Both the position numbers and the translations under genes were made by a program. A model generated the notes under the pieces. The model saw only the letters and a list, made by a program, of their open reading frames with translations. It made no database searches and was not told where the DNA came from. A DNA stretch of 64,000 nt. It comes from Ginglymostoma cirratum (Eukaryota). Below are positions 3,111 to 61,791 of the stretch, in pieces. Within the stretch, counting starts at the first letter, position 1. Each line of letters begins with the position of its first letter. The stretch covers positions 38,775,282 through 38,839,281 of the forward strand of contig JAHRHZ010000249.1 in assembly GCA_024137785.1 (NCBI GenBank). Direction: 5' to 3'.

Positions 3111-3197
3111 TTGCTCAACCAATGCAAATCCAGTGACAGCTTAGTCTTGATGGATGAAGCTGTAAAAGAAAGGCACATTAACCAAAAGGATACCAAG
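3111..3197 (+). CDS. Candidate internal exon (87 nt, phase 0-0): LLNQCKSSDSLVLMDEAVKERHINQKDTK
   Basis: ttttttttag acceptor, AAG|gtgagt donor, open frame, non-repetitive sequence. Confidence 0.5.
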
Positions 3198-3584
3198 GTG
3201 AGTGTGTTTAAATCAGAAATGTAATAGAAGACATTACACTTTGAGTATTCCAATAATTGCTCTATAGTCAACCAGTTTTACATTGAGTGCAATGAAGTTT
3301 TCATAAAACTTTTAACTGCCAGTCTTAGTGGATATGAAAGATAAAGCTCTAAGAAAATATTGATAGACATATTTGCCAAGTACTTAGAAAATAAATGTTG
3401 GTATTAATGTCAGGCTTCACCCTCACAGTTCACAAAGCCTGTTTTTATGAGCATTTCATTTTGACCTCTGTGGCATTCAAAGAATTTTTCTGGCTCAGGT
3501 TCAGAAATTATGAGAGACAATGGTTGAAAAGATGAAAAAGATCTTATATTTTCTCAAAACTTTTTTTCTATTTTATTCATAGAG

Positions 3585-3818
3585 CTCAGTCGAGTTTTCC
3601 TTGTTTATTACTATGCAGTCCTGTTACATAACAGTTCTGCAAAACTGGGATATGTACAAGGTTTCTAAAGTCCCATATTCAGTGACGTCTGACAAGAAAA
3701 CAAAATCACTTCCATTCATCATTTTGTGCTGCTAGCTTTATAAGAGGAATTCAAATATGCTGAAGTGATGCCAGGTCTGCCCGTTATCATTGTTGCATTA
3801 CCAGTACACAGTCTAAAA
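3585..3818 (+). pseudogene. Candidate disabled exon with TBC-like GYVQG motif
   Basis: Polypyrimidine acceptor (ttttattcatagag) and gtaaga donor. 78 codons LSRVFLVYYYAVLLHNSSAKLGYVQGF*SPIF...ALPVHSLK with three in-frame stops. Confidence 0.3.
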
Positions 3819-4217
3819 GTAAGATCTGCTTTTTTGGTAAACTGATTTATGTGTTTTCTGCACCACTTTCAAAACAATATCTTACAATTAGTGCTTTAAC
3901 TGCCAGTGATGCAATTATGCATGTGTACACAGAGCCTGTTCCTTTCTTGCTAATGCCATTCACAACTAACAAAGAGGAGGTGGGGCTTCCTCCAATTCCT
4001 CATCCCTTTCTCATGATAAAGAATTTAAGTATAGTTTGGTCTGTGACCAGCTCCAACAGTGGGACAAGGTCACAACAGACCCATCACAGAAAATTGCTAT
4101 GCCTTGCCAATCCCTTTCTTCCCTCAAGATCATCTGGAAAATTCAGGGCCAGGACAAAATCTGATAATCTAAGTCCAACCTAGCTTTTAGTCATTCCACT
4201 GGACTGGCGTCATTCTG

Positions 4218-4445
4218 AGCCACTCACCATCCTGACTTGGAAATCTATCATCATTTCTTCACTGTCATCAGATCAAAATTCTGCAATCCCCTCCCTGACA
4301 GTATTGTGGGGGCAGCCACACCAAATAGACTACAGCAGTTCAAGATGGTGGATCAGCATCACCTTCTCAAAAGCAACGGGGTCCTGCAATAAAATGCTGG
4401 CCTAACCAGTGAAGCTTACATTCCATTAATTAATTAAAAGAAAAG
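4218..4445 (+). mobile_element. CR1-type LINE 3' end fragment
   Basis: Paralogous to 1813-2030. Confidence 0.7.
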
Positions 4446-4635
4446 TGGCTCATGACTATGTTCTCAGGGATAGTTGGAGATTAGCAATAAATGGTGCTTT
4501 CACCAGTGATCCCAAAATCTCTTGAATCAATAATGAGGTATTGGAAGATACAGTGGACATTACTGCAACAATTAGGTACAATTCCCAAATGCATGTAATA
4601 TTTCCATTTGCAGGCCACACACCTCTCTTCTGGCG

Positions 4636-4875
4636 GAGATAACAAGGTGTGGGGCTGGATGAACACAGCAGGCCAAGCAGCATCATAGGAGCAGGAAAGC
4701 TTGACGTTTCGGGCCTAGACCCTTCATCAGAAAATCTGGGATATGTACAAGGTTTCTAAAGTCCCATATTCAATGACATCTGACAAGAAAACAAAATCAC
4801 TTCCATTCATCATTTTGTGCTGCCACACACCTTGTTATCTCGGATTCTCCAGCATCTGCAGTACCTTTTATCTCT
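4636..4875. mobile_element. PLE pLTR foldback insertion (family A) containing captured local DNA
   Basis: Left arm gagataacaagg...catcagaaaat; 88-bp copy of 3645-3732; right arm cacaccttgttatctc plus tail. TSD tctcttctgg(c/t)gg at 4624-4636 and 4871-4883. Confidence 0.9.
4701..4730 (-). ncRNA. Minimal type I hammerhead ribozyme motif (PLE-type)
   Basis: Reverse complement reads CUGAUGA-A-GGGU(CUAG)GCCC-GAAA-CGUC-AA: intact catalytic core, stem II and palindromic ACGU stem III. Confidence 0.75.
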
Positions 4876-6493
4876 TCTGGTGGATGCTGGTTCAGGAATG
4901 CAGCGGTACACATCATTGTTACAAAGCCATGTCACACCTACTCCGAAGCCTTTGTTCCATTTCTGAGCTAGAGGCAAATAATCAATCCTCTTAAGGCTAA
5001 AGGAAAATCAGAAGGCACTTGCCCACTGGGCACAAGTTGCATATTTCCCAGCAATCATCCACAACTATCAATAAAACTACCCTGGCCACTGGCATTTCAC
5101 ATCACTTCTGTCAGATGTCAGGTGTTATTAAAATCCCTGGATTAATAATGTTTGGAAGCATTGTTATTTAAACAAAAAACAGCCAAAGAAAATAAATGGC
5201 ACTACTTCTAAGGATGAGAGAATTTTAGATGTACCTAGTTCATGGCACTATGACACATTTTCAAAAGAAAAGATTCCAATTCTAATTTCTAATTCTAATC
5301 TGGTAACTCTTTGCGTTCACTGGTTCTCATGGACATCAAGGATTTTCAAGAAGCTTTGATGCCTCAGATTTGTTTTCCCCCACCTCTTCAAATAGCTGAT
5401 AATACACCTTATTAAGAAAATGAAAACTTAGAGTACATAGTAGAGTACAATGCACTTAAAAGCATCATATTACAGATTTAATATCTCAAATTCCACACTT
5501 TGCAATGTTGCAATTGTTGCTTATCTAACCTGTAGCATCTTATCTTAGTCATTATGACACTCTGACCTTTAAAGTTTTGCACCTTTGTAGACAAAAATTA
5601 AAATTCTTGACCGCTTAACATCAGCCCAAACAACAATAATTTGTAGAAATCACATCCTTTAATCTTATACATGTTTCTCTCTTTATTTGAACACAGTGCC
5701 TGAGGATCAGCTGCACTGTTGTAGTTTTCCTTTCCTTAATCTATCCTCTAAATCTGACAATATCCAGCTGCTTCTGTTTTGAATCTCTGAAGATTTGTGT
5801 ATATTATCTCAACCCATCAATAGGCCTCCCTTGCATTTTACTAACATAGATTCCCACATCTGATTAACGTCTGTCCTCATTTCTACTAATTCCTATTTTT
5901 GTTTTGCTTTTACCTTGCCAGCATTGCATGCTGTACTCCTGAAGCTCCCAGTTCTGGGGCACCAGCTGTCTCCATAAGTGGCCATTCTTGCCTTACAAAT
6001 CTGCCTAGGAAGTGAATGTCTACTGGGTATTTAATTGGAGGGACTTCACTGCTGAGCACAAAAAGAAATGGTTTGAAGTGATTGAAAAAATTAGACTTGC
6101 GTAATCCAAATCATCCATTATATTTAGTGGTATGAGCAGATAACTCACTGTCATGTGCTATTCTTCTCTTCAACATTAATATAAGCTAACAGAATGAACC
6201 ACATTGACAGATAGCTGGTTCAATGAAATGATTTATCTGTGCAAAGACTTTTGAGCTGTAAAATTATTCAGGTCCTCAGTCAGACAAAATGAAGAAGAGA
6301 AAAATGGTCTTTTTGTGTTTTGCTGCAATGCTAAAGCTTGAGTATAAATGGCAAATCACTCACATTCTACAATATAGTTGCTGGTGGCAATATCAATGGG
6401 GGTGTTTTGTCTGCTTATATTTGCCTGCTTGATTCCTCACCACTTGTGACTGGTTGTAATAGAATGACAGGAGCTGATCTATTGGTTGAAGAG

Positions 6494-7184: not shown

Positions 7185-8390
7185 TCAAAGATAGTAAAAA
7201 CTGCAGATGCTGGAGTCAGAGATAACACAGTGTGAATCTGGAGGAACACAGCAGGCCAGGCAGCATTAGAGGAGCAGGAAAGCTGACGTTTTGGGTCGGG
7301 ACCCCTCTTCAGAAATAAGGGAGGGGTAAGGGAGCTCAGAAATAAATAGAGAGAGGAGGGGTGGGACTGGGGAAGATAGGTAGGATGGTGATAGGTGAGT
7401 GCAGATAGACAGTGGTGGGGATTAGTCAGTGAGGTGGGAGGAGCGGGTAGGTGGGAGAGAAGATGGGCAGGTTGTGTCAGCTCAAGGAGGCGAGGATGAG
7501 AGGGAAGGTTGGTCATGGGATGAGGTTGGGCATAGGGAGATTTTGAAACTGGTAAAATCCACGTTTAGGTCATCGAGCTGTAGGGTCCCGAGAAGGAATA
7601 TGAGGTGCTGCTCCTCCAGTTTGCGGGTGGCGTCATTGTGACCATGGAGGAGGCCCAGAATGGACATGTCACCCAGGGAGTGGGAGGGGGAGTTGAAATA
7701 GTTCGGGACTGGAAGGTATTGTCATTTGTCATGAACAGAGTGCAGGTGCTCTACAAAGTGGTCTCCGAGCCTCCGCTTGATCTTGCCAATGTAGAGGAGG
7801 CCACATTGGGAGCAGCCGATGCGATAGACCACATTAGCGGATGTGCAGGTGAACCTCTGTCTGATGTGGAAGGTTTTTTTGGTTCCTTGGATGGAGGTGA
7901 GGGGGGAGGTGTCGGCTTCCAGTGCAGGTGTAGCACTTCCTGCAGCTGCAGGGAAAGGTGCTGGGGGTGGTGGGGCTGGCAGGGAGTGTGGGGGGTACGA
8001 GGGAGTGGTGGAGAGAGCTGTCCCTATGGATGGCAGATAAGGGTAGAGAGGGAAATATATCTTTGGTTGTGGGGTGAGATTGTAGGTGGCGGAAGTGGAG
8101 GAGAATTATACATTGGATATGGAGGTTGAAGGGGTGATATGTGAAGACAAGGGGGATTCTGTCTTTGTTTTTGTTGTGGGGATGGGATGTGAGGGCTGAG
8201 GTGCGAGAAACACAAAAGATATGGGAGAGAGCATTTTCGACTGAAGAGGAGAAGTTGAGGTCCTTGAAATATGAGGACTCCTGGGATGGGAGTGAAACAC
8301 CCCATCTTGGGAGCGGATGTGGTGGAGGTGGAGGAATTGGGAGTAGGGGATCACATTCGTGCAGGAAGGTGAGTGAGATGAGGTGTAGAA
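7185..8390 (-). mobile_element. Penelope-like retroelement 3' part (RT C-terminus, GIY-YIG endonuclease, 3' pLTR)
   Basis: Peptides MSILGLLH..DATRKLEEQHLIFLLGTLQ..LNVDF and a GIY-YIG-like YIGK segment in another frame. Terminal repeat 7185-7312 is the same sequence as the foldback arms, with a hammerhead core at 7283-7312 (GAAA mutated). Confidence 0.9.
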
Positions 8391-8994
8391 GGAAGGAAGT
8401 TCCTTCACATTGTGGTGCTGTGACCCCATCCTAGTTAAACAGCAAGAGAACAAGCCCGGATGAAACCATATGAAACAGCATCAAAAACAGACAAGACAAA
8501 TAGACAGTTTTATTTTTCATGTATCACTGGAGTAAAACGGTTTAAAATGGAGAAGCCCACTCCAGTAATGGTGTGTCATAGACCAGACAGGGAGTCTGAG
8601 TCATTTTGGTCACATGCACTTTTGCCTGCATGTTTCAATCTGGAGCTGTTGATAATGATGGTAGAGATCCAATGTTCTTCCATCACATAGCTGATCAGCA
8701 GTCATTCCCACTCATCCCACCTACCATCAGTATGTTTGGAAAGAATTGCTAGTTAATAGTCAATTTGGCTGGCCATGTAACAAGCACAACTTACAGACCA
8801 TCAAGTCCTGGAGTGGGACAAACCAAGGATCTCCAGCTCAGAGTCATGAAGACTACCCACCTACATCAAAGTTTAAATAAGTTCCAACAGTAAATGCTCC
8901 CGAGTGATTATTCCACTTAGCCTGCACATGGGATTAGGTTGCATTGAGTTGATTTATTACTCTTCAGTAACTTAAATCATGATTGGATTTAGAT

Positions 8995-9795
8995 ATCATT
9001 GCTCAGGTATTTGAGTGTAAGAGTTGGGACATCATGTTGAATTTGTACAGGAAATTAGTGAGGCCTCTTCTGGAGTATAAGGTCAAAAATCACATGACAT
9101 CAGGTTATAGTCCAACACGTTTATTTGAAGACACAAGCTTTTGGAGCCTCACTCCTTCGTCAGGAGACTCTGAAAGCTTGTGTCTTTGAATAAACCTGTT
9201 GGACTATAACCTGGTATTGTGTAATTTTTGACTTTGTCCTCCCCAGTCCAACACCGGCACCTCCACATCACTTTCTGGAATACTGTATTCAGTTCTGATC
9301 ATCCTGCTATAAGAAAGATGTTATTAAATTGGAGATGGTTCAGAAAAGATTTACCAAATATTGCAGGGAATAGAAGGCTTGAGCACATTCGGCTGGATAG
9401 GCTGAGACCTTTTCGCTGGAGTGTAGGAAGTTGAGGGGTGACCTTCCTGAGGTTTATAAAATCATGTCAGGCATGGATAAAGAGCTTTTCCTGAGGTTGG
9501 GGAGTTCAAAACTAGGGGGCATATTTTTAAGGTGAGAGGAGAAAGATTTAAAAAGGACATGAGGGGCAATATTTTACATCAAGTTGTTTGTGTGTGTAAT
9601 GAACTGCCAGAGGAATGGTGGATGCAGGTACAATTACAACATTTAAAAGACATTTGGATAAAAAATGATTAGGAAAGGTTTGGAGAAATATGGGCCAAAT
9701 GCAGGCAAGTGGGACGAGATTAGTTTGGGAACATGGTTGGCATGGATTAGTTGGACTAAAAGGTAGATTTCTGTGTTCTATGGCTATAACTCTAC
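8995..9795 (+). mobile_element. CR1 LINE 3' fragment
   Basis: SWDIMLNLYRKLVRPLLEY motif and CR1 3' UTR; interrupted by the foldback at 9078-9270. Confidence 0.85.
9078..9270. mobile_element. PLE pLTR foldback insertion, family B
   Basis: Inverted arms caggttatagtccaac / gttggactataacctg with extra tail. Minus-strand CUGACGA-A-GGAG..CUCC-(A)AAAGCU hammerhead-like core. Flanked by ttctggagta / ttctggaata. Confidence 0.8.
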
Positions 9796-12294: not shown

Positions 12295-12717
12295 TTGCAT
12301 TGCGAGTAAATTCTGGCTGTATTCCTGAACAGCCTAAAATAATGGGATGTCAAAGTTATCTTTATGAAGCTAGGAGGAGCAAAAATCTTCTTTCATGAAT
12401 AATTCTCCCACTCTGGCTGACTGGTCACTCAATGTGGCATAACAAGGCCCATCAGACAAATGTAACTTGCCACATATATATATATATACTTTTGAGAGTC
12501 ACTCCTGAACCTCCTGAACCAGAATGTGCTTAATACCAGCATTATTGGACAGCTACTGGTTAGATACCTGACGGTGAAAACCTATGACGCAGTGCCCTTT
12601 CGGTGTATCATTGAAGTGACCATTTTTTGTGCAGAAGCTTGAACAGTGATTGTTGACAGGCTCCTCAATTGTAGGGAATGTGCCCTGTGCAGAGAAACCT
12701 GACCCTGTCTCAGTTGA

Positions 12718-13445
12718 GAGATAAAAGGTACTGCAGATGCTGGAGAATCCGAGATAACAAGCATGGGGCTGGATGAACACAGCAGGTCAAGCAGCATCAT
12801 AGGAGCAGGAAAACTTGACGTTTCGGGCCTAAACCCTTCATCAGAAAATCATTTTCTGATAAAGGGTTTAGGCCCGAAACGTCAAGTTTTCCTGCTCCTN
12901 NNNNNNNNNNNNNNNNNNNNNNNNNNNNNNNNNNNNNNNNNNNNNNNNNNNNNNNNNNNNNNNNNNNNNNNNNNNNNNNNNNNNNNNNNNNNNNNNNNNN
13001 NNNNNNNNNNNNNNNNNNNNNNNNNNNNNNNNNNNNNNNNNNNNNNNNNNNNNNNNNNNNNNNNNNNNNNNNNNNNNNNNNNNNNNNNNNNNNNNNNNNN
13101 NNNNNNNNNNNNNNNNNNNNNNNNNNNNNNNNNNNNNNNNNNNNNNNNNNNNNNNNNNNNNNNNNNNNNNNNNNNNNNNNNNNNNNNNNNNNNNNNNNNN
13201 NNNNNNNNNNNNNNNNNNNNNNNNNNNNNNNNNNNNNNNNNNNNNNNNNNNNNNNNNNNNNNNNNNNNNNNNNNNNNNNNNNNNNNNNNNNNNNNNNNNA
13301 GGAGCAGGAAAACTTGACGTTTCGGGCCTAAACCCTTTATCAGAAAATGATTTTCTGATGAAGGGTTTAGGCCCGAAACGTCAAGTTTTCCTGTTCCTAT
13401 GATGCTGCTTGACCTGCTGTGTTCATCCAGCCCAATGCTTGTTAT
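12718..13445. mobile_element. PLE pLTR foldback insertion (family A), young, spanning a 400-N gap
   Basis: Perfect 15-bp TSD ccctgtctcagttga at 12703-12717 and 13446-13460; intact hammerhead cores at 12815-12844 (-) and 13355-13384 (+). Confidence 0.9.
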
Positions 13446-13543
13446 CCCTGTCTCAGTTGATGTCACTACATGAGCACTTCCAGCAAAAATAATGAGATAA
13501 CAATCAGGATTGGGGAAACAGGGCTCATTTTTCACCTTCTTAG

Positions 13544-20371: not shown

Positions 20372-21033
20372 CTGGAATGAGTATTTTCTTGTCACGTGTA
20401 CTGAAGTATAGTGAAAAGCTTCATTTATGAGCAGTACAGGCAGATCATAGTAAGCAAGGATGTAGAGATCAGCAGTTGTAAAAAGACTTAGACATAGGCA
20501 TACAGGTTACATTGCGCAGGGCGTGCGCTAAGCGAGATCATCATTAGCAACATTAGCATTATTTGAGGCTAGAGAATCTATTCATCCATCTAATAATGGC
20601 CGGGAAGAAGCTGTTCTTGAACCTGCTGGTTTGTGTGGTCAGGACTTTTGTATCTTTTGCCTGATGGACGAGGTTGTAGGAGATTATTACCAGGGTGTGA
20701 TGGGTCCTTGATGATGTTGGCAGCCTTTCCGCAGCACTGAGCCATGTAAGTAGAGTACATCGATGGAAGGTTGGCTTCCGTGATGGTCTGGGCTGGCAAC
20801 ACCACGTTCTGTAGTTTCTTACGGTCCTGGGCAGAGCAGTTGCTGTACCAGGCTGTTATGCACCCTGACAGTATGCTTTCTATAGTGGATATATAGAAGT
20901 TGGTGAGGGACCTTATGGACATGCCAAATTCCCTGAGCTGCCTGAGGAAGAAGAGGTGTTGTTGTGCCTTCTTGACCATTGCATCTATATGGGAAGTCCA
21001 GGACAGATTGTCAGTTATGGTCTCTCCTAGGCA
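20372..21033 (-). mobile_element. Rex1/Babar-clade LINE 3' fragment
   Basis: 129-aa ORF KKAQQHLFFLRQLREFGMSIRSLTNFYISTIESILSGCITAWY, typical of the Rex1/Babar RT C-terminus, followed by a 3' UTR. Confidence 0.85.
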
Positions 21034-21052
21034 TGACTATCCAATCCAACAT

Positions 21053-21152
21053 TTTTTTTTCTGATGAAGGGTCTAGGCCCGAAACGTCAAGTTTCCTGCT
21101 CCTATGATGCTGCTTGGCCTGCTGTGTTCATCCAGCTCCACACCTTGTTATC
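21053..21152 (+). mobile_element. Single tail-less PLE pLTR arm (family A) with TSD
   Basis: TSD tccaatccaacat at 21040-21052 and 21153-21165; T-run then ctgatgaaggg...cttgttatc. Confidence 0.85.
21061..21090 (+). ncRNA. Minimal type I hammerhead ribozyme motif (PLE-type)
   Basis: ctgatga-a-gggt(ctag)gccc-gaaa-cgtc-aa; all core nucleotides present, predicted cleavage after GUC. Confidence 0.75.
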
Positions 21153-22049
21153 TCCAATCCAACATCCAACCAGGTACCAGTCCCCGAGCAGAGCTACATT
21201 TTGGTGCCAAAACATCTACATTATCCTTACAGCAGTAATTAACCTGCATTTTGTTTCCAGGCCAGTTCCCAATAGTTGTCTTTCCTTCTCTCCATTTTTT
21301 AAAAAGAAGCCTCTGTTTAAAGCTCCAAGTTCAATTCTCAACTGCAACTTACTGTTTCAAACCAAAACTGAGAAAAATAATGATCGTTTTAAACAAAAGG
21401 TTGATTAAAAAAAACATATTGTTTCTAACTCTAATTGGATCATGTTGCAGTGGATTCCATCACATGACTGTCCACCTACAATCACTCAACCTTCATGTTC
21501 TCCTCATTACCCAGCTAGCACTTCAACCCTAATGGTGACAGGCTAAGAACGCTTGTTGTGTTAGCCTCACTCCTCTATGCTGTAGAAACTAGTCAATCAA
21601 TTGCATTGTCTGAATAGAACATGCATGCATCAGTGTTGCATTATACCCTAAGTATACCGTTTATTGTAATTCTGGCTACAGCAAAATTGAAGAAGAGGAA
21701 GATTAAATTTTTTTTTTGTTTTTACCGGGTTCTTCCAAAGGCATTTTTTATGATCCAGTAGACTTAGGATAACCTGAGCAGACTAGTAAAGCCATGCACA
21801 AATGTGATACTCATAAGCAAACAAGCAATATTCAGCTTATTTCAAAATGAAGAACATGAAATACATGACTGACAAAGCTACAAGTGAGCAACAGAGGTTT
21901 TATCATTCATAATATTAGATGTTGTAGAACTTGTTACTCCAGATTTTATGAATGAATAGAAGGCAAATGACTTTCAATTCAGAAGTGTGAGGTGATGCAC
22001 TTCGGTCAGAAGAACATATAAAATAAAGTCGTTAAACATAAAATAAAGT

Positions 22050-23090
22050 CAGTCTGGCAGCTTTTGTGTAGAGACAAACTGAATTAACATACTGAGTCTG
22101 ATATAGCTCTCATTTAGAAGTGAAACAGGTTGGAAGATGATGTTTTTTATGCTGTTGACAGAAGGGGAGGAGGAACGGACGGAACGGATGGTGAGTTTTG
22201 CCCAGCACAAATAAAATCAAAGGCAGTGCTAATATTGGTAAAGAAGAAATTGAGATATAAAATATGTGTAAACGAGTGTTGTGAAAAGGGGGAAATGGCT
22301 TAAAGCAAATCCAACAAGAGAAAAACAAGGCATGGGCCATGGTTGGAATGGGTTGTAATCAAAATGGAGGACAAAGGTGTAAAATTGTTGAACTTAATAT
22401 CGAGGTAACAAGGTGTAGAGCTGGATGAACACAGCAGGCCAGGCAGCATCAGAGGAGCAGGAAAGCTGACGTTTCAGGTCTGGACGGTATTTGGACTTTT
22501 CGGGTTTCTTCAGAAAATTCTACAATACCTAATATTATGAATGAGAAAACCTCTGTTGCTCGCTTGTAGCTTTATCAGTCGTGTGCATTACATGTTCTTC
22601 ATTTCTGAAGAAGGGTCCAGACCAGAAATGTCAGCTTTCCTGCTTTTCTGATGCTGCTTGGCCTGCTGTGTTGATCCAGCTCTACACCTTGTTAATCTCA
22701 GATTCTCCAGAGTTGGCAGTTCCTCCTCTCTCCGAGCTTATTATGGAGTCGTGAAGTGATGTGTTGTCCCTCTAGCTTTTATTGAACTTCATTGGAACAC
22801 AGCAGTGGGAAGGAAATATTTGCATGGGAGCAAGAGGGTTTATTGAAGTGATGAATAATCAGAAAGTCAAGTTCTTACAAACAGAGCAGAGGTATTCTGC
22901 AAAGTTGTTACCCAGTCTTAGTTTGGTCTCAGCAATGTAAAGGCATTATGAACAGTGAATACTATACAGTACATTGAACGAGGTACAAATAAAATGCTGC
23001 TTCAGATGCATTTGGGACCTTGGACGCTGACAGGCAAGAAGAGGTAAAAGGGCAAGTGTTCCACCTTCTCTGAGTGCATGGCAAACTGCA
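22050..23090 (-). mobile_element. Old Penelope-like element 3' part
   Basis: Decayed pLTR near 22050-22120 and sequence homologous to the GIY-YIG region of 7185-8390 at 22740-23080. Confidence 0.65.
22402..22732. mobile_element. PLE pLTR foldback insertion (family A) containing captured local DNA
   Basis: Two inverted arms; spacer 22518-22604 is an inverted copy of 21845-21929; degenerate TSD gaacttaatat / gagcttattat. Confidence 0.9.
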
Positions 23091-25835: not shown

Positions 25836-25932
25836 TTGTATGATGTGAATAATTGTGTTCACAACACTGACCCCTGCGGAACTCCACTAGTCACTGGCTG
25901 CAATCCTGAAAAGGACACCTTTATCCTCACTG

Positions 25933-26155
25933 AGATAACAAGGTGTAGAGCTGGATGAACACAGCAGGCCAAGCAGCATCAGAGGAGCAGGAAAGCTGAT
26001 GTTTTGGGTCTGGACCCTTCTTCAGAGTTCTGAAGAAGGGTCCAGACCTGAAACGTCAGCTTTCCTGCTCCTCTGATGCTGCTTGGCCTGCTGTGTTCAT
26101 CCAGCTCTACACCTTGTTATCTCAGATTCTCCAGGATCGGCAGTTCCCACTACCT
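25933..26155. mobile_element. PLE pLTR foldback insertion (family A), complete and ungapped
   Basis: About 96-bp near-perfect arms (25931-26026 and 26029-26124), 2-nt loop, roughly 30-bp tail, perfect 14-bp TSD ctttatcctcactg at 25919-25932 and 26156-26169; hammerhead core at 26030-26059. Confidence 0.95.
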
Positions 26156-27187
26156 CTTTATCCTCACTGGCTACCTTCTTGTCAATCTTCGATCCATGCT
26201 AATACTTTTCCCCTAATACCATTGTCTGATCTTGTTTAGCAGCCTCCTAGAAATCCAGATAGATCCTGCCCACTAGCTATCCTCTGTCTGACTTGCTCAT
26301 TAACTCTTCAAAGAATTCTAACAGATTTGTCAGGCATGACCTCCCATTGACAAAATCGTGCTGTTTCAGCCCTTTTTTACCATGCACTTCCATGTACTCC
26401 TCAATCTCAGGCTTAGTACTGGACTCTAAAATCTTACTAACAACTGAAGTCAAGCAAATTGGCATATAATTTCCTGTCTTCTGTTGCTTTCTCTTTTTAA
26501 ACAGGGTGGTTAGCCCTTACCTGACTTCAATGGTTCATGAAAGATCACCACCAATGTCTGCGATACCAAATGTTGATTTGTTGTATTTAGATTTCCATAA
26601 GGCATTTGACAATCTCTCAGCTATCTCTGTTAGAACTCTGCAGTGTCATCCATCTAGTCCAGGTGATTTATCCACCTTCAGACCTTTCAGCTTCCTAGCA
26701 CCTTCGCCTTAGTGACAGCCACTACACTGACCTCTGTCCCCTTACTCTGCTGAAGTTCTACTGTGCCTCCTGAATTACCTCCAGAAACTCCTTCCATTGG
26801 TGCTCCGCCATCTTCCCTGCTGGACTGTCTGTCCAATCAGCTCCTCCTTTATGTCTTTGTAGTTACCTTTACTCAATTGTAATACCGTTACATCTAATTC
26901 AAACTTCTCCCTCTCAAACTGCAGGGTGAATTTTATCATATTATGGTCACTGTCCATAGGTGTTGTTTCACTTTAAGCTCCCTAACCAAGTCTGCCTCAT
27001 CACAATGCTTGCAAAAGCTTCGAAATACTTCTGAAGCATAAAAAAAGTAAAATTATAAAAACTGTATCTGCTTTTTGTAATCATAACCATGCACTTAAAA
27101 CATACCCCCATGACTTAGTTTAAAGCCCTAGCCACAGCTCCAGTTATGCAATTCACCAAGACTCTGATCCCAGCATGATTCAAGTGG

Positions 27188-27539
27188 GGGGTTAAAATTA
27201 TTTCAGAGATAGGAACTGCAGATGCTGGAGAATCTGAGATAACAAGGTATAGAGCTGGATGAACACANNNNNNNNNNNNNNNNNNNNNNNNNNNNNNNNN
27301 NNNNNNNNNNNNNNNNNNNNNNNNNNNNNNNNNNNNNNNNNNNNNNNNNNNNNNNNNNNNNNNNNNNTAGAGCTGGATGAACACAGCAGGCCAAGCAGCA
27401 GCATAGGAGCAGGAGAGCTTGACGTTTTGGGCCTAGACCCTTCTTCTGAACAAGGGTCTAGGCCCGAAACATCAAGCTCTCCTGCTCCTATGATGCTGCT
27501 TGGCCTGTTGTGTTCATCCAGCTCTATACCTTGTTATCT
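27188..27539. mobile_element. PLE pLTR foldback insertion (family A) spanning a 100-N gap
   Basis: TSD atgattcaagtgg at 27175-27187 and 27540-27552; inverted arms. Confidence 0.9.
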
Positions 27540-28766
27540 ATGATTCAAGTGGAGCCTGTCCCATTGGAACAACTCCCTCCTTCCCCAGTACTGGTGCCAA
27601 TGTCCCATGAATTCAAACTCAGTTATCCCACACGAATCCCAAACCACAACAGGCAGGTCCTTTGTTTCAGGACTCTGTGGGTACAAGTCACTTTTGTCTG
27701 CTAGTCAGGGCATGTTTTCTCTCCTCAGGTCATGGTCTGTCCATAAGCTTGTCCTCACTTTCCTCTCACTAGTTCTTAGCTCAACCATTTTGTCTTATAC
27801 ACTAACAACATTGTTCATTCTTTAATATTATAACTAATATGACTTCTGTAAAGAAATCTAGTACATAAATGGTTTCAAAGATGCAGATCAAAGAAACAAG
27901 CTACAACAATGTCAACTATCAAAATAACAACATCTGTGATTGCAAATACTGGGCAAGTTCCATTCTGACAATTACATCACAACTCCGTTTTATCTCTAAA
28001 TTACAATGGGGGCTAAGTTACAAATATTATTCTTTTTGTTTACTGATAACTAAACCATATTATTGCTTAGCAGCAATGTGTTAGCTGCTGTTGCCAGGGT
28101 TATTAGCGCTAATGTGTAACTTGGAGGGGGCCTTGCAGCTTGGTCTTCCAATGCATCTGTTGTTCTTGTTCACCTGGCCTTAAAGCTAGCACAATTTTCA
28201 TTATGATACTTGAAGAAAACTCCCATGCTTTTATGAACATCATGGGTGGTGAACAAACACAAATGATAGTCACCAATAATTATTCTCCATTATGTTTCTA
28301 ATTACATAAACTTATGGGGTGTAACAGCTGAAAAAAAACCAAAACATTCTGCCATGAAAAAGTGATCCAATTTTCTGCTCAGTTAGAATTTCTGTTGTAG
28401 CTTGGCATGGTTATGATTACAAAAAAGCAGATACTCATTTATTTTTATGAGTTTACTATTTTGTTATGCTTTAAAAGCATACTTTCAAAACAAATCTACT
28501 CCAAAACCTTAGATACTTTCAATACTTTTGCCATGTTTAAAATTGATCAGGGAACAGTATTGGAGTGATGGAAGCATCACGATTTTGACCTGAATTCTAA
28601 AGAAAATATATTAACAGGTTTAGGAGCAAATGCTCCCAGATCAATAGAAAAACTCAATTATATAGAAGAAGAAAGAATAGCAGAATTAAATTTTAAAGAA
28701 AAAGATTTGTGGTGACCAGTTTACATTCTAGTAATTCCCAGACAACTCATTCAAAGACCGGGGTGT

Positions 28767-36554: not shown

Positions 36555-38400
36555 TTCGACCGTAAGGCGAAGGGACAGAAATAGACCCTTCAGCCCATTG
36601 AGTCTGTTCCGCCATTCAGTGAGATCATGGCTGATCTGATAATCCCCAACTCCACTTTCCTGTTTTTCTCCCCATAACCCTTGATTCCATAATGGATAAA
36701 AATTGCAGCCTTGAATATACTTAATGACCAGCCCCAACAGCCCACTGCAGTAAAGAATTCCACATTCACTACCCTCTGAGAAAAGAAAGTCCTCCTCAAG
36801 AGAGTGAGCCTTACATCTGTTGTAGGAAAAGTTTTGGAAAGGATTATAAGAGATAGGACTTATAATCATCTAGCCAGCAACAATTTGATTGGAGATAGTC
36901 AACATGGATTCGTCAAGGGCAGGTCGTGTCTCACAAACCTCATTGAGTTTTTTGAGAAGGTGACCAAACATGTGGATGAGGGTAGGGCAGTTGACGTGGT
37001 GTACATGGACTTCAGTAAAGCCTTTGATAAGGTTCCACATGGTAGGCTATTGGAGAAAATGCAGAGGCATGGGATTGAGGGAGATTTAGCAGTTTGGATT
37101 AGAAACTGGCTTTCTGAAAGAAGGCAAAGAGTGGTGGTTGATGGAAAATATTCAGCCTGGAGTCCGGTTACTAGTGGTGTGCCACAAGGATCTGTTTTGG
37201 GACCACTGCTGTTTGTCATTTTTATAAATGACTTGGACGCTGACATAGGTGGATGGGTTAGTAAGTTTGCAGATGACACTAAAGTCGGTGGAGTGGTGGA
37301 CAGTGTGGAAGAATGTTGCAGGTTGCAGGGAGACTTGGATAAACTGCAGAATTGGGCTGAAAGGTGGCAAATGGAGTTCAATGCAGATAAATGTGAGGTG
37401 ATTCACTTTGGGAAGAATAATAGGAAGGCAGAATACTGGGTCAATGGAAAGATTCTTGGTAGTGTGGATGTGCAGAGGGATCTTGGTGTCCAGGTAAATG
37501 GATCCCTGAAAGTTGCCACCCAGGTTGATAGTGCTGTTAAGAAGGCATACGGTGTGTTAGGTTTCATTGGTAGAGTGATTGAGTTCCGGAGCCGTGATGT
37601 CATGCTGCAACTGTACAAAATGCTAGTGCGGCCTCACTTGGAATATTGCATACAATTCTGGTTGCCCCATTAGAGGAAGGATGTGGAAGCATTGGAAAAG
37701 GTGCGGAGGAGATTTACCAGGATGTTGCCTGGTCTGGAGCGAAGGTCTTATGAGGAAAGACTGAGGGACTTGGGTCTGTTCTCATTGGAGAGAAGAAGGC
37801 TAAGAGGGGATTTAATAGAGACCTACAAAATGATCAGAGGATTAGATAGGGTGGACAGTGAGAGTCTTTTTCCTAGGATGATGACGTCGGTTAGTACGAG
37901 GGGGCATAGCTGCAAATTGAGGGGTGATAGATTTAAGACAGATGTCAGAGGCAGGTTCTTTACTCAGAGAGTGGTAAGGGCGTGGAATGCCCTGCCTGCC
38001 AATGTAGTTAACTCAGCCACATTAGGGGCATTTAAACAGTCCTTGGATAAGCATATGGATGATGATGGGATAGTGTAGGGGGATGGGCTTAGATTAGTTC
38101 ACAGGTCGGCGCAACATCGAGGGCCGAAGGGCCTGTTCTGCGCTGTATTGTTCTATGTTCTATGTTCATCTCTGTCTCAAATGTATGAACACTTATTCTG
38201 CGATTATTCTCTCTGGTCCTAGACTCTCCCCCAAAAGGGAAACAACTTTCTACACCTACCTTGACAAGTCCCCAAAGAGTATTATAACAAGGTCATCCTT
38301 ACTCTTCTATATTCCAATAAGTACAGGGTCAATCTATTCAACCTCCTTATAAGACAATCCCTCCATACGTGATATCAGCCTAGTGAATCGCCTCTGGACT
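36555..38400 (-). mobile_element. Older CR1 3' fragment split by the young CR1 insertion
   Basis: MRRTFFSQRVV at 36590-36799; the host sequence resumes at about 38168 (cctcctca|tctctgtc). Confidence 0.75.
36800..38166 (+). mobile_element. Young 5'-truncated CR1 LINE with near-intact RT
   Basis: ORFs 36804-37673 (QHGF, DFSKAFD, GVPQGSVLGP, FADD) and 37683-38078 are in one frame separated by a single stop; ends in (gttctat)n. Confidence 0.95.
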
Positions 38401-41721: not shown

Positions 41722-41935
41722 AATTAAGAACTGCAGATGCTGGAAATCAGAGACAAAATCAGAAATTATTGGAATAACTCAGTGGGTCTGGCAGCATCTG
41801 TGAAGAGAAAGCAGAATTAACATTTCAGGTCCAGTGACCCTTCTTCAGATTAGGTTACTGGACCTGAATCATTAATTCTGTTTTCTCTCCACAGATGCTG
41901 CCAGATCTGGTGAGTTATTCCAGCAATTTATGTTA
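41722..41935. mobile_element. PLE pLTR foldback insertion, family C
   Basis: Arms tctggcagcatctgtg / cacagatgctgccaga with extra tail; minus-strand CUGAAGA-A-GGGUC..GACCU-GAAA core. Confidence 0.8.
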
Positions 41936-42049: not shown

Positions 42050-45000
42050 GTCACAAGAAGGGTTTAAAATTGATAAGGTGGAGGTATTGGACAAACTATT
42101 GGTATTTAAAGTTGATAAGGGCTATACGAGATGCATCAAGGAGTTTGAATGAAGAGAGAATGAAAATTGCAGAGGCACTGGCAATAATCTTTCAAACTTC
42201 TCTTAATTTACCATTTCATGCCTGATGATTAGAAAATTATAAAAACTGTGCTCTTGATAAAAAAAAAACACGTTGTAAAGGTTGGCCCAACAAGTACAGA
42301 GCAGTCAGTTTAACATCAGTGGTAGGGATGCAATCAATTATTTGGAATAAAATTAATCAGTCGCAAGGAAAAATCTGGGTTAATTCAGAAGAGTTGGCAT
42401 GGGAATGTTCATGGGAAATTGTGCTCAACTAACTTGCTGTAGATTTTGAAGCAACAACTGAGAGCATTGGTGAGAGCATTGTATATATTCAGTTCCAATG
42501 GCATTTGATACAAAGTCTCATAACAGACTTTTGATTGTTGAGGGAAGAGCATTGGATGTTGTCTACGTGGACTTTAGCAAGGCCTTTGACAAAGCCCTTC
42601 ATGGCAACCTGATACAGAAGGTGAAGACATATGAGATCCGTAGTGAGCTGGTAAGATGGATACAGAACTGGCTTGGTCATAGAAGACAGAGAGTAGCAGT
42701 GGAAGGGTATCATTCTGACTTGCAAACTGTGACCAGTGGTGCTCCATAGGGAACAATGCTGGGACCCCTGTTAATTGTAATATATATAAACGATTTGGAG
42801 GAGAATGTATCAGAGATAGGGTCTAAGCCCGAAACGTCAAGCTTTCCTGCTCCTATGATGCTGCTTGGCTTGCAGTGTTCATCCAGCTCCACACCTTGTT
42901 ATCTTGGAGGAGAATGTAGGTGATCTGATTAGTAAGTACGCAGATGACACAAAGATTGGGGGAACTGGAGATGGTTGCCAGAAGATACGGCAGGATATAA
43001 ATGGGCTGGACACTTGAGCAGAGAAATGGCCCATGGAATTTAATCTGGACAATTGCGAGATGATGCATTTTGGAATGTGTAATGCAGGAGGGAAGTATAC
43101 AGTAACTGGCAAAACCTTTAGAAGCATTAACATCCAGAGGGATCTCGGCGCACAGATCCACAATACCCTGAAAATGGCAACACAAGTGGATAAGGTGGGT
43201 CAAGAAGACATATGGCATGCTGGTCTTCATTGGTTGGGGCACAGATTTTGAAAGTTGGCAAGTTTTGTTGTAGCTGTATAGATGTCAGGGAGGTCACATT
43301 TGGAATGTTGCACACAGTTCTGGTTACATCACTACAAGAAGGATGTGGAGGCTTTGGAGAGATTTCAGAAAAGGTTTATCAGAATGTTGCTGGTTTAAGG
43401 GGTAACAACTATGAAGAGGGATCAAAAGAGGGAACTCGGTTTGTTGTCACTTGAATATCGACGACTGAGGGGTGACCTAATAGGGAGGTTATGCTTCAGT
43501 GAGTCTGGGCATTGGTGAGACTGCATTTTGAGTACTATGTACTTTGGTCACTGTATGTATGGGAAGGACATTAATACTTTGGAAACAATTCAGAGAGGGT
43601 TTATGAGACTAGTACCTGGAATGAATGTATAGCCCTCTGAGGAAAGGCTACACAGTCTAGGCCCATATCCTCTGGTGTTTAGAAGAGTCAGAGGTAGGTT
43701 AATTGAAACATGTAAGTTCCTGAAAGGAACTTGACGTTGAAAGGATGTTTCCTTTTGTGGGAAAATCTGAAACTAGAGATCATAGTTTAAAATATGAGAT
43801 TTAAAACAGAGAATAGTTTTTTTCTCTCAATAGGTTGTGACTCTTTGGAATTCTCTTCGTCAAAACACAATGGATGTAGAATCTTTAAAATGTTTAAGGC
43901 AGAAGTGGATGGATCCTTGATTACCAAAAGGATGAAAGATTTTCAGAGATATGCAGAAATGTAGAGTTATGTATAAAAATAAATAAGTTGTGATCTCATT
44001 TCATGGCAGAATAGGCTCAAAGGGCCAAATGGCTGACTCTTTTATCTTGTTTAGAAGTTCATTTTGACAGAAAACAGAGATTAGTAGTTAATGGATATTT
44101 TTCAGCCTGGTGGAAGTTTAAAGTGGAATTCCCTAGGTATTGGCATTGGGACCGTTGCTTTTCCTGAGATATTAATAGATATAAATGATCTTGATCTTGA
44201 TCTTGCTGTGCATGGAATAATTTTAAAGTTTCTGGGCAGCACAAAACATTGTAGAATTGTAAACTTTGAGAGGTCAGTGTAGAACCTCATAAGGAAATTG
44301 ACAAGCTGAAGAGGTTCAATGTGGAAGTGTGAGGTGATGCCCTTTGGTACAAAGAACATTGAGAGGCAGTATAAAAGTTACTATTCCAAAGGGAATGCAG
44401 GGCAGACACTTGTGTAAATATTTACATAGATCATTGCAGGACAGATAGGGAAATCTGTTGATAATGCATAATGTATTCTAGACATCGTTAAGAGGGACAT
44501 AGAGTACAAGAGCAGGGAAATTATGTTAAATTTAGCTAAGACACTGGTTAGACCTCAGCTGGAATATTGTGTGCATTCTGGGCATTTGTCTTTAGGAGGC
44601 ATGTGAATGAATTGGAGAGAATGCAGAAATGATTTATGATAACGATTCCGGGGATCTGAAGCTTCAATTATTGAGAAAGATTAGACAAGTTGGAACATGT
44701 TTCCTTGGAGAGGAGAAGGCTAAGAGGATATTTGATAGAAGTTTTCAAAATCACAAGGGATATGGTCAGAGTAGATAGGGAGACAATGTTCCCAGTTGTA
44801 AAATGATGGAAAACCAGTGGTCATTGTTTCATAATATTTTGCGAGCGAAACAAAGTGAGATGAGAAAGAGCTCTTTCACATAGTGAAAGGTTTACGTCTT
44901 GAATGCACTGTCTGTAACTGTGGAGACATTTAAGAGGCCATCACATAATTATTTAAATAGAAATAAAGCACAGAGTTATAGGGCAAAAGCAGAATTTGGT

Positions 45001-49672: not shown

Positions 49673-49902
49673 TAAAAACCGAAAGAACTGCAGATGCTGT
49701 GAATCAGGAACAAAAACAGAAGTTGCTGGAAAAGCTCAGCGGATCTGGCAACATTTGTGAGGGAAAAAGTCCCGCATGTAAACTGATGTTTTCCCAGCTG
49801 CCATTAGTTCTGAGGAAGGGTGACTGGAGTGAAACATGAACTCTGTCTTTTTCTTCACAGATGCTGCCAGACCTGCTGAGCTTTTCCAGCAACGTCTATT
49901 TT
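49673..49902. mobile_element. PLE pLTR foldback insertion, family C
   Basis: Arms gttgctggaaaagctcagc / gctgagcttttccagcaac; TSD tgttaacgcacaccca / tgttaacacataccca at 49657-49672 and 49903-49918. Confidence 0.85.
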
Positions 49903-50479
49903 TGTTAACACATACCCAGCCTTAAATATTCCTCTCGTCTTTCACCTTATCTGCTGGTGGCTGTGTCTTTAACTATCTTGTTGTACACATTGAAACCCCC
50001 TTCTGTCACCTTTCCACCTTAGTCTCCTCTTAAGTTGTTTGAAATCCATTTCTCCGACAAAGCTTACGGTCACCTTCATTAATACTTCCAAGGTAAATTT
50101 CTGAGTTTGTTAGAGCAAGAACACTTCCTTAATTTTGCACCTAAACATTGGCAAAAAGTCAGCAGTAATCTCAAGGAAATAGCATAAATGATAAAAGCAG
50201 TGATTCTGAAGATTCTGTGTTAATATCACAGTGAGAGATGGGATCCATGGAGATGTCAGGCATTTATCTTTAAATGCAAAGTATTAAGAAAATAAATCAG
50301 CACTGGGGATTTTTTTTTGCTATGATTGTTTTTAACCTGTGCTGCCCTCTACCCTGGCAACTAACAAAGTTAATTTTTCAATATTACTTACTTTGATGAA
50401 TGGAATTCAATGTAATCATTCGAATACAGTATTAAAGTTTTAAATAGCAAACAAGCAAAAGTCAATTCTGATCAATTTT

Positions 50480-50812
50480 TTAATATATTGATTCACAGGA
50501 TGTGGATATTCAGCACTTACTGCCTGTCCCTAATTTCCCAGAGGCAGTTAAGCGTCTTAGGTCTGGAGTCACATGTAGTCCAGACCAGGTAAAAATCGTA
50601 GATTTTCTTCCCTAAAGGGAATTCGTGATCCAGGTGGGGTTTTATGACAATCAACAGTGGGTACAAGGGGTCACTATTAGGCCTACTCCCTATGCCATAT
50701 GTTTATTGGATTGAAATTTCACCATGTGGCATTTAAACTGATGTCCCCAGAACATCAGCCTGTGTTCTAGATTGCTAGTCTCGTTACATTACCACTACAC
50801 CAGCAATTTCCC
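50480..50812 (-). mobile_element. SacSINE1-like Deu-SINE
   Basis: Reverse-complement paralog of 11952-12294. Confidence 0.75.
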
Positions 50813-58700: not shown

Positions 58701-61578
58701 GAGTCCAAATTGTCACTTCCATGTTACTGCATAAAAAGCATGGTTGAACTTGAGATTTAACTGTAAGGAGATCATTGGACCAAAAATCCACATGGGCTTG
58801 CAGGAAAAGTGCAAATCTTTGTAACTTCATTAAACTCTTTGATACAGACATGATACTTCCATCTCCTTTCACTGGCCCAAACTTACAATTAGATCAAAAA
58901 AGAACTCCAGATGGCTGAGGTAAATTCTATTTTTTCTGCTGCTTTCATTTCAGATTTTGAACTATAACATTTCACACCTGTGTGACATGCTGCAAATGAA
59001 ATACACATGAACCAGATGCAGCTCAGCAGGAATTTCTAACAAAATGATAGCATCATTTTCCATAATTAACTGAACTAAGAAAAAAATTGACAACAGAATA
59101 TTGCTCTTCAGTCTTCTGGTCTGAACATTGATTTCAGTAACACTTCCATCACACTGAGAATTTCTAGATAATTACAAATACTGTACTGTGAAAGAGTTAA
59201 TATCTCAGTGATCGGGGCATCATTTTCACTTTGCAATTGTTGTGCCTCAGGTCAAGTTTGGTAATTCAAACCACAGTATTTGGTGGGAATAATTGTTTGA
59301 TCATGGTGCACTTAAATAGGAAACTAATTATTTAATTTACTACAAGTGTAATGATCATGCAGCTGCAGTCAAATGTAAATTGATTACTCACATGATCACC
59401 CTTGTAAGACGCTTACTTTTTATAGCCTGCTTATCACATACATTTTTCAGTGCAGGAGCTCCCTTGACTGTTGGTTTCTTACTTACAGTGGCCAGAAATG
59501 GAAACTATTTTTCTTTTTGTTATGATCTGTCAGTTTTTCATCTTGGCACTGTGATGATAGGCTTCAATTCATCTTGTATATTACATTCTGGTAGCCTTTG
59601 ACACAGCTAGGCAGTCACAAAGAAACACAAAGTTTCTCTGTGCGCACAATATGTCTTAAGGTGATATGAAGCAACCAAATTTGTTTCTCCTATCCTATTA
59701 TTTTAGATATATAGATAGGAAGGAACATTATTTCAAACATCAAGGCCACTGGTAAAAGAGAGATAACAGTGTACTTTGGAAGAGCCTTTCTCTTATGAAC
59801 CATAGATTCACTCAAATATTGGTCAAGAAGGGTTTTGAGGAATTTCCATGGATATTTTTATTTATCTAAATGTTCTCACACCATTTTCTCCTGAGTACAT
59901 TGGTAAGTATTTATTGTGGAATGTGCTCATTAGGTAAAGAGACAACAATATATCCTGGTTGCAATCCAAATTCATTGTGAGTCTACTTTATTTGAAAGAT
60001 GTAATGAGCCATTCTGGATAACCTGACATTTTAGCAACATTTTTAGTTCTATTCAGGCTTTAATTGTAAGGGAAGGCAAATATCTTCCAAAAGTGAAGGA
60101 ATGCTCAATAGATGTATTGAAAGATTTTCTTTGCAATGTTTTCTGTCACTCTGAAGAATTCTGGTCTCTTGGTAGCTTTTTGATGGTGTCAACCAAACTT
60201 ACTTTCATTTGCTTCTGTGTGTTGTAAACTGCAACTTAGCATAGATTTGCATTGATACAGGGTTTCCCATATCCCAAAATTGATGTGTTTTTTTCCTACC
60301 TGCAACCACATTAACAGCTGTGCCAACCACCTACATCTCAGTCAATCTCTCCCTTTCTTTCATTTCAGGTGGAAACAGTCCACATTAGGACAGTAAGAGC
60401 TCAGAAGGGTGAGGGGTGCCTGACATTTGGCTTCTCACTTCTTATGTGGAGAGGATCTTGATACTGGCTGCCTCGAGTAGCCAAACGACTGTGCTCCTAC
60501 CTCAGACAGATATGAATTACTATGCTAGGACCCCCTGACTAAATAGCGTCTCTCTTATTTGATTGACGACAACTCCCATTAGAATGAGAGAGACATGATC
60601 ACTTGCTTGAAGCAAATTTTGCAGCACATATCCACATTCTGGACTGCTGACATCCTTGACAAACTTCCCGGCTTTGCATTTGTGCTAAAAGGTGAGTCAG
60701 GACAGAAGATTGTGTGCCTGTTAATTCTAGCTGAAAGGGAGAAGTGGAGAAAGAGAAGACAAGTTAGGGCTGTTGTGAGCATTACTGTAGGCAGTAAGAG
60801 TGTGAGTGCTAAGTAAGCAAGTGAGCAGCCCTGAGATGCAGCCTGGTCCAATCCATGAGCTGGATGCCTGTACCTATGCACAAAGAGTCCTTGCAGGTGC
60901 ACTTCAATGATAGTTGCTGATGCATGACAGAGAACAGCAATTGACTGCATGTAGCCAGTGCCCTAGAGCCATGTCTTGTAACGTTGGTGCTTAGTGTCCA
61001 AGACAGAGGTTTAGAGAAGTAAGCTGCAAGCTGGATTCATCAGGACTGATTTCACGTCAGAAATTCTTAGCATCTAGTTTCTATCCAGTGGTGGTAGGAT
61101 GGCATCTTGCACATAAATGAGTTGAGATTAGGGGCAATGAGGGAAAACATTGTCAATAATCCATGATTATTGCCCTTTTGTCGCTCATTAGCAAGAAACT
61201 CATATTTACATCTGGAACTGTTTTTCCATTGATTAACATTAATACATTCATGCATATAATTACGAACAACCATTTTCCCAAGCCTCTGACTTCACAAATT
61301 TAGGCAGTCTGAGGTTTTACAATTCTTCTAGACTGCATTCTCTTTGGATTTGGAAGTTTGGCAGGTCTTTGGCTTCAGGATTGTTGACCAGAATTTTGTT
61401 CTGCACTTCATGAGCTCTGTGTAGTCTCTGTCCACTGGAGAACATTTTATCTCTTGAATGTCCTTTGTGGAAGATGTTGTTTCTGCTGAAGCAGAGAATT
61501 GATCTATGGCACCATCTAGGAGTCTCTTAATCTCCAGAAGTTCCTTTGTAAAAGAAATCTTTCCTGCTGAATCTAGTA

Positions 61579-61791
61579 ATGGTATTTCTGTTATTATGTG
61601 TGTTTCATCAATGCAAATTTTATAACGTGATTGACAAGTTAGTGAACGCTGTTTGGATAATGCAAATTTTCTACTGTACAGGTATAGTGATCTTCTATAG
61701 CGCAATTTTCCAAGCAATTTTCTGTAGTGTGATTCCCTATAGCGTGAGGTCTCACAAGAATGCAACTATTGTGTCGTACCAGAAATACCTG
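61579..61791. mobile_element. Tc1/mariner-pogo (Tigger-like) MITE
   Basis: Short TIRs ggtatttctg (61581-61590) / cagaaatacc (61780-61789) with TA flanks and internal ctatagcg repeats. Confidence 0.6.

Follow-up and report, generated by a model that had tools for sequence, protein, structure and literature searches.

Templated insertions at retroelement junctions are already known from L1, zebrafish LINEs and R2, and from Pol theta. L1 insertions can carry an inverted 5′ segment that starts from a second nick, a short internal duplication at the inversion, with a median of 22 bp (bioRxiv 2024.08.27.596794), and a discrete target duplication, and non-element genomic DNA can be copied into the insert during integration (bioRxiv 10.1101/2024.08.27.596794; PMC11702581). 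Such templated insertions number 22 beside 3,598 truncated insertions, from a pipeline not built to find them, and are typically shorter than 250 bp and derived from within 15 bp of the site. In the zebrafish LINE ZfL2, extra nucleotides at the joining end are frequent (about half of the inserts) and are templated from the flank, stabilising synapsis (PMC4245944; PMC4760211). In R2, 5′ junctions of the "snap-back" and "extra template" classes arise when synthesis continues from the cDNA 3′ end with the cDNA itself or target DNA close by as template, often once the cDNA is full-length, and jumps to cellular RNA are found as well (PMC11371274). Pol theta and SD-MMEJ generate direct and inverted copies of the flanks in repeated rounds, with a weak first homology and a longer final one (PMC7165422; PMC2943611).

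The purified Penelope protein cuts and extends both strands, using two start sites that bracket the tail and initiating without homology between RNA and target; in the available text of that study, the steps of second-end joining are left unvalidated (PMC11167929). Head-to-head palindromes and foldbacks have been explained by self-priming, and in Adineta vaga, unique host spacers or unrelated sequence stand between solo pLTRs inside TSDs, the pLTRs being inverted and having an optional tail of ~30 bp (PMC3846280). A title and abstract search, with thin coverage of the subscription literature, returned no report of locally templated spacers or of twin priming in Penelope elements, and the available parts of PMC12016303 and of a retrozyme preprint (10.64898/2026.07.22.740005) hold nothing on local capture.

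The locus described here lies in a 64,000-nucleotide stretch of Ginglymostoma cirratum DNA, which was analysed as a whole and is called the window. In its workings it resembles templated insertions made where twin-primed ends meet, and each of the systems above has some of its features: the inverted segment, internal duplication, discrete target duplication and copied genomic DNA of L1, the flank-templated bases of ZfL2, the priming on nearby target DNA of R2, the direct and inverted copies, repeated rounds and graded homologies of Pol theta, and the host spacer between inverted, optionally tailed pLTRs of Adineta vaga. The sources of the captures are farther off than in other retroelements, at 461–979 bp from the target site, and copying may be much more frequent, with captures in two of eight foldbacks of a Penelope element; at the L1 figure of 22/3,598, the probability of at least one in seven is 0.04, although the L1 pipeline did not search for such events. 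The supplements of the L1 preprints, which hold distance data, could bear on how unusual 0.5–1 kb is. ZfL2 adds several nucleotides at a simple 5′ junction, whereas here 87–88 bp stand between inverted cDNA arms, and the R2 products come from an engineered, site-specific element in human cells, with one primed strand and no pLTR foldback. As a Pol theta TINS, the insertion is atypical by size: tracts there rarely exceed 10 bp per round and typically come from ≤30 bp of the break (PMC7165422), which fits an 11-bp bridge at the present locus but not the main tracts. The Adineta vaga spacers measure 0.9–1.5 kb or hold whole genes and were read as mobilisation in trans, and the available portion of that report does not trace their source to the insertion's own neighbourhood (PMC3846280).

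Penelope pLTR copies in the window

The repeat that forms the foldbacks is a Penelope pseudo-LTR (pLTR). A longer broken copy with the same pLTR and tail (Table 1) ties the family to endonuclease-bearing Penelope elements. An ORF piece of this copy matches seven proteins. Six of these match Pfam GIY-YIG, though only one reaches the cut-off, and one of the seven shows weak similarity to RVT_1 (E 0.036); the piece alone gave no Pfam match, and no RT part was found in the broken copy. Its flanks hold no convincing TSD. TSDs of 13–16 bp surround all eight short pLTR copies that have both flanks in the window. The 34-bp tail stands on one arm only, and tail-less copies end at an inner site.

At the 5′ edge of the short pLTR copies lies what we take, by eye and against the hammerhead consensus, to be a hammerhead-like core. 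This assignment also leans on PMC4209133. An Rfam scan found no hammerhead match in the pLTR; the 4-pair helix of the motif is paired in 97.5% of 40 cells, with only one-sided changes, and fold z-scores range from -0.3 to -1.3.

Foldbacks of the family with a visible centre lie at 1–167, 4636, 12717, 22402, 25932, 27203, 28767 and 42812, the last being counted through a putative 9-bp arm (42812–42820), which looks like an inverted arm begun at the tail end.

Table 1. Positions of the features discussed, numbered from the first base of the window
Feature	Position	Strand	Basis or remark
Splice-like interval around first source, candidate exon	3583..3818	+	
Source of first capture	3645..3732	+	86/88 to 4736-4823
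Left flank, second template	4614..4624	+	11/11 to 4822-4832; directly after acceptor-like AG
Left TSD, first locus	4624..4637	+	last 2 bases common to inverted arm start
Inverted tail-less pLTR arm, 100 bp	4636..4735	-	inner start site to 5′ edge of hammerhead-like motif
First capture, direct copy of 3645-3732	4736..4823	+	alignment
Bridge from left flank	4822..4832	+	2 bases common to source, 7 to sense arm
Short sense arm, 50 bp	4826..4875	+	16 bp duplicated with inverted arm, plus 34-bp tail 4842-4875
Right TSD, first locus	4871..4884	+	one CpG change against left
Longer broken copy, same pLTR and tail, GIY-YIG-like coding remnants	7185..8480	-	
Source of second capture	21845..21929	-	self-match
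Left TSD, second locus	22390..22404	+	12/15 to 22734-22748
Inverted arm, second locus	22402..22517	-	includes 22486-22517, rearranged pLTR-like restart
Second capture, 87 bp, inverted copy	22518..22604	+	E 1e-22
Full sense arm with tail, second locus	22602..22733	+	alignment
Foldbacks of older related repeat families	9072-9270, 41728-41932, 49683-49906		

A captured segment between inverted arms

The first locus reads, from left to right, TSD, tail-less antisense arm, capture, short sense arm and TSD. The two 14-bp TSD copies agree at 13 of 14 positions. The antisense arm differs from the copy at 21058–21154 by one mismatch in 97 columns and one gap; in the sense arm, whose last five bases are common to the right TSD, the overlap with the other arm is identical (16/16), as is the tail to that of a sister copy at 12717–12750 (34/34). 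The long arm has no tail, and the short arm is without 84 of the long arm's 100 bases, so that neither can be a self-copy of the other. Each arm would therefore have been made from RNA, unless the sense arm was cut back later.

A preliminary description of this DNA had reported an 88-bp direct copy of upstream sequence, with two substitutions, between inverted pLTR arms and inside the TSD. The alignment bears this out, being ungapped, and the end of the right TSD has to be moved from 4883 to 4884. Of the two substitutions, one reflects CpG decay on the side of the capture. The pair stands out clearly (self-BLAST E 9e-42): the second-best ungapped match to the 88-mer in the window reaches 43/88, against a mean of 22.9 (sd 5.0), and the segment has only two copies there, capture and source. 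Similarity ends at both junctions, and these diverging flanks indicate that the capture is not part of a larger duplication. The preliminary description had also considered a dispersed repeat or a part of the Penelope consensus; within the window, the 43/88 match and the other pLTR copies, none of which carries either captured segment, speak against both. Its distance of 1.1 kb is right as the spacing from copy to copy (1091 bp), while the source starts 979 bp and ends 891 bp before the target site. The A-run that it placed before both copies amounts to four A's each, but the run in the insertion belongs to the pLTR and is separated from the capture by a T (4735). AT content is 0.64 and 0.66 in the two captures described here, and 0.64 and 0.60 in the DNA upstream.

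At its right junction, the capture passes into 11 bp that read as a copy of the left flank of the insertion site itself. This 11-mer occurs in the window only at these two places, and the A at 4825 is the flank base, where all 12 other pLTR copies found by a pattern search have C. A bridge with a flank base absent from those 12 copies implies two template hops. The homologies at the junctions are one exact base between arm and source, two between source and flank and seven between flank and arm; the imperfect arm–source match of 7/10 is equalled at 28 of 3024 upstream sites, the window of comparison having been chosen post hoc. By base composition, the 11-bp flank match has a probability of 8e-6. 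However, of 16 flanks of 31 nt taken from these insertions, 8 match some part of the pLTR over at least 7 nt, and six of the flank bases recur in register at the foldback at 25932, which makes the match less improbable than that value implies. It is still unusual that the arm ends exactly at the flank match and carries the flank's base.

A second capture and the frequency of captures

The older foldback at 22402–22733 also holds a copy of nearby sequence, in this case inverted (Table 1). Capture and source differ by 7 mismatches in 85 columns and one 2-bp indel, and the source precedes the target site by 461–546 bp; as at the first locus, it is found on the tail-less side. Three bases are common at the right junction and none at the left; a null test of the right junction was unremarkable (5/8, reached at 128 of 2968 sites). 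The two independent captures are near-equal in length, 88 and 87 bp (n = 2).

Within the window, local captures thus occupy two of the eight foldbacks with a visible centre, the other six having no spacer; when the foldback that prompted the analysis is left out, the rate is 1/7, with a 95% interval of 0.4–58%. The window contains 46 self-matches within 5 kb, among which three two-copy non-repeat pairs remain after the pLTR and other dispersed repeats are set aside, two of them at foldback centres. Three of the eight foldbacks have N gaps in their arms, and the capture rate may be biased, since interrupted palindromes assemble more easily. The extra bases at 27188–27204 and 42809–42811 were tried as local captures and rejected because both extend the tail alike and look like element sequence.

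The N gaps inside three other foldbacks, together with a centre that appears twice, also make it conceivable that palindrome gap filling during assembly produced the spacers, or that the 88-mer is a low-copy repeat or a part of the element RNA. This is very improbable. Copy and source differ, by two substitutions including the CpG decay at the first locus and by seven and an indel at the second, and this divergence argues against an artefact; both segments are absent from every other pLTR copy in the window, and the junctions are clean and lie inside intact TSDs.

Age of the captures

The first capture differs from its source at 2/88 positions, and its element (arm, tail, overlap and TSD against their references) at 2/161; for the second, the values are 7/85 and, between the two arms of its element, 7/84. 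Neither difference is significant (p = 0.62 and 1.0), with intervals of 0.3–8.0% against 0.2–4.4% at the first locus and 3.4–16% for both at the second. Each capture would thus be about as old as its element, and the wide intervals also fit an event soon after insertion. The preliminary description had tied the capture to integration, and that view gains from its position at the arm junction inside an intact TSD, from the second event, from the matching divergence and from the copied left flank.

Long palindromes are fragile. A full foldback could accordingly have been inserted first and later have broken at a hairpin or cruciform, or stalled a replication fork, with repair by a template switch within ~1 kb; most of the sense arm would have been deleted, and the spacer left behind would have stabilised the locus. 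The first capture (88 bp) is about as long as the missing part of the arm (84 bp), the dating leaves room for such an event soon after insertion, and under self-priming (PMC3846280), a short arm that bears the tail requires a later deletion. At the second locus, however, the whole sense arm is kept and sequence was gained at the centre, each capture has diverged about as far as its element, and the six other foldbacks persist without spacers. Repair after insertion is therefore considered a poor candidate.

Proposed mechanism of integration

The probable course of events, although far from certain, is a twin-primed Penelope integration in which synthesis templated by host sequence close by linked the two cDNA ends. 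The endonuclease would cut both strands ~14 bp apart, as the TSDs suggest. The anatomy of the arms and the published in vitro work then suggest that synthesis from the bottom-strand end began at the end of the RNA tail and stopped after 50 nt, and that synthesis from the top-strand end began at the inner start site and reached the hammerhead-like motif, at its edge, after 100 nt. As the two cDNA ends have no usable homology, one of them would misprime on upstream chromosomal DNA, in two hops, copying 88 nt from 3645–3732 and then a few nt from 4614–4624; the junction sequence is observed, and the order, direction and enzyme are what the model supplies. The second hop would yield a stretch that matches the other cDNA end over 7 bp, after which the gap would be closed. 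The best candidate for the agent is end joining of a synthesis-dependent kind, Pol theta-like or other, acting on upstream DNA that had been resected or opened; the Penelope RT itself is possible. The captures would arise as a by-product of integration, duplicating ~90 bp of DNA from the neighbourhood, with no function implied.

Twin priming is proposed because the arms cannot be derived from each other and each needs RNA, on the assumption of no later deletion. The 16-bp internal duplication resembles the duplications of L1 twin priming, and the second locus repeats the pattern with an inverted capture, a source on the tail-less side, a full sense arm and a second restart. Direct and inverted copies and repeated rounds are products of Pol theta and SD-MMEJ, but tracts of 87–88 bp from 0.5–1 kb exceed Pol theta norms; tracts so long and distant need long resection or strand invasion, of which there is no direct sign. 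The priming sites of the first locus have two bases (inner start) and five bases (tail end) in common between RNA and target, against the homology-free initiation described in PMC11167929. Identical products are predicted for top-strand DNA and for + strand RNA as templates, the direction of copying being unreadable from the sequence, and the sample of captures is two.

Host RNA as a possible template and the question of an exon

That prediction leaves a place for a reading in which the Penelope RT jumped, at integration, from its own RNA to a nascent or spliced + strand host transcript. If the host RNA had lost a GC-AG intron, with 3730 joined to 4614, the RT would need to jump only once, at the 7-bp match, to produce the whole of 4736–4832; if the splice joined 3818 to 4614, the second hop would skip 86 nt and not 881. 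Splice signals were ranked with a crude frequency matrix, to which all ranks below are subject. The flank-derived tract begins exactly after an acceptor-like site, before 4614, that ranks 243 of 8396 AG sites (~0.2% of positions), and strong + strand signals are close by, namely a donor at 3198 (12 of 11391 GT/GC sites) and an acceptor at 3583 (127 of 8396). Both captures are compatible with a + strand template, the source frame from 3583 stops just past the captured end, and the capture stays in frame through the element into downstream sequence. Jumps of L1 and R2 RTs to cellular RNA are known (PMC13174262; PMC11371274). Against this, the GC donor required at 3731 ranks low (4457 of 11391), and the ends of the second source lie off + strand splice sites, the source spanning a donor-like site at 21884. 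Support for a gene is missing from both the Pfam scan and the homologue searches described below, the ORF that spans the capture has no high-identity relative, and the splice scores rest on that crude matrix. An RNA template is on balance unlikely.

The preliminary description had placed the source within a candidate exon at 3585–3818 and suggested that exonic sequence was duplicated. The acceptor lies at 3583, and the donor at 3819 ranks 340 of 11391, so that the splice signals are plausible; nevertheless, the interval has stops in all three + frames, no Pfam match and no homologue, and neither the exon as described nor its duplication is supported. The interval 3583–3818 may be an exon that has decayed or does not code, or no exon at all. 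A crude exon finder, run for a host gene, failed to recover the candidate exons. Among 140 stop-free ORFs, five of them around the source and most of the others from the 190 of 1369 that passed a splice-signal filter, Pfam gave no meaningful match to a host-gene family; one real match was to an ALKBH8_N-like piece at 20593–21036, which is likely a LINE remnant, and six were weak and below the cut-off. No homologue was found for the source ORF or for an ORF at 61331–61765, in a type of search that is weak evidence of absence; PDB searches returned nothing useful and the ESM Atlas no usable match. A short open frame at 3111–3197 runs up to the donor at 3198 and has no Pfam match.

A 91-codon open frame (4719–4994) runs from the inverted arm through the capture and the sense arm into the right flank. 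Homology searches (PDB, ESM Atlas, HMMER) gave it no credible homologue; the full HMMER scan of the capture-spanning ORF returned two multi-stretch matches, at 30% and 45% identity, and none of high identity.

Implications for Penelope integration

The combination of a short arm with the tail and a long arm without it points to twin priming, where foldbacks had been ascribed to self-priming, and the captured spacers mark the second-end joining step of Penelope integration. Insertions are plentiful, with at least eight foldbacks of one pLTR family in 64 kb, and the distance, side, orientation and strand of spacers genome-wide would tell repair on a DNA template apart from RNA jumping. At a rate close to the 14–25% seen here (L1, ~0.6%), Penelope elements would be a steady source of small local duplications, and the spacers may stabilise otherwise fragile palindromes. 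It is a bolder and quite doubtful idea that the Penelope RT, priming both strands, routinely jumps to a host transcript and leaves local retrocopies, even with spliced junctions, in more than one in ten foldbacks; were this so, the centres of foldbacks across the genome would document germline transcription and the way in which Penelope integration finishes.

Other insertions and minor observations

The bases 4619–4624 equal 25915–25920, each 17 bp before the start of an inverted arm, and these six bases common to the foldbacks at 4636 and 25932 may reflect a target preference. In the foldbacks 1–167, 25932–26157 and 27203–27539, the point where the arms meet is mostly the 5′ edge of the hammerhead-like motif, which lies upstream of the expected hammerhead cleavage site, and this meeting point suggests a defined RNA 5′ end or a strong stop. 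The copies 21056–21154 and 42812–42904 end at the inner start site and have no tail but full TSDs.

The young foldback 12717–13446 shows its centre twice, in opposite orientations, around a 400-N gap; the doubled centre is an assembly artefact of the palindrome. Private variants common to its arms point to one RNA or one master, and a single unpaired C at its centre could be a cap-derived base.

The centres of three foldbacks of older related families (Table 1) have no convincing local source in the window. At one of them, 49774–49789 matches 50729–50744, ~0.9 kb downstream, at 15 of 16 positions (E 0.03) and is possibly an old capture. Away from foldback centres, 27025–27092 and 28405–28480 form a two-copy inverted pair, 79% identical and 1.3 kb apart, perhaps the ends of an old DNA transposon. 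The stretch 36780–38078 holds well-kept frames which, by their motifs, we take to be LINE reverse-transcriptase-like.
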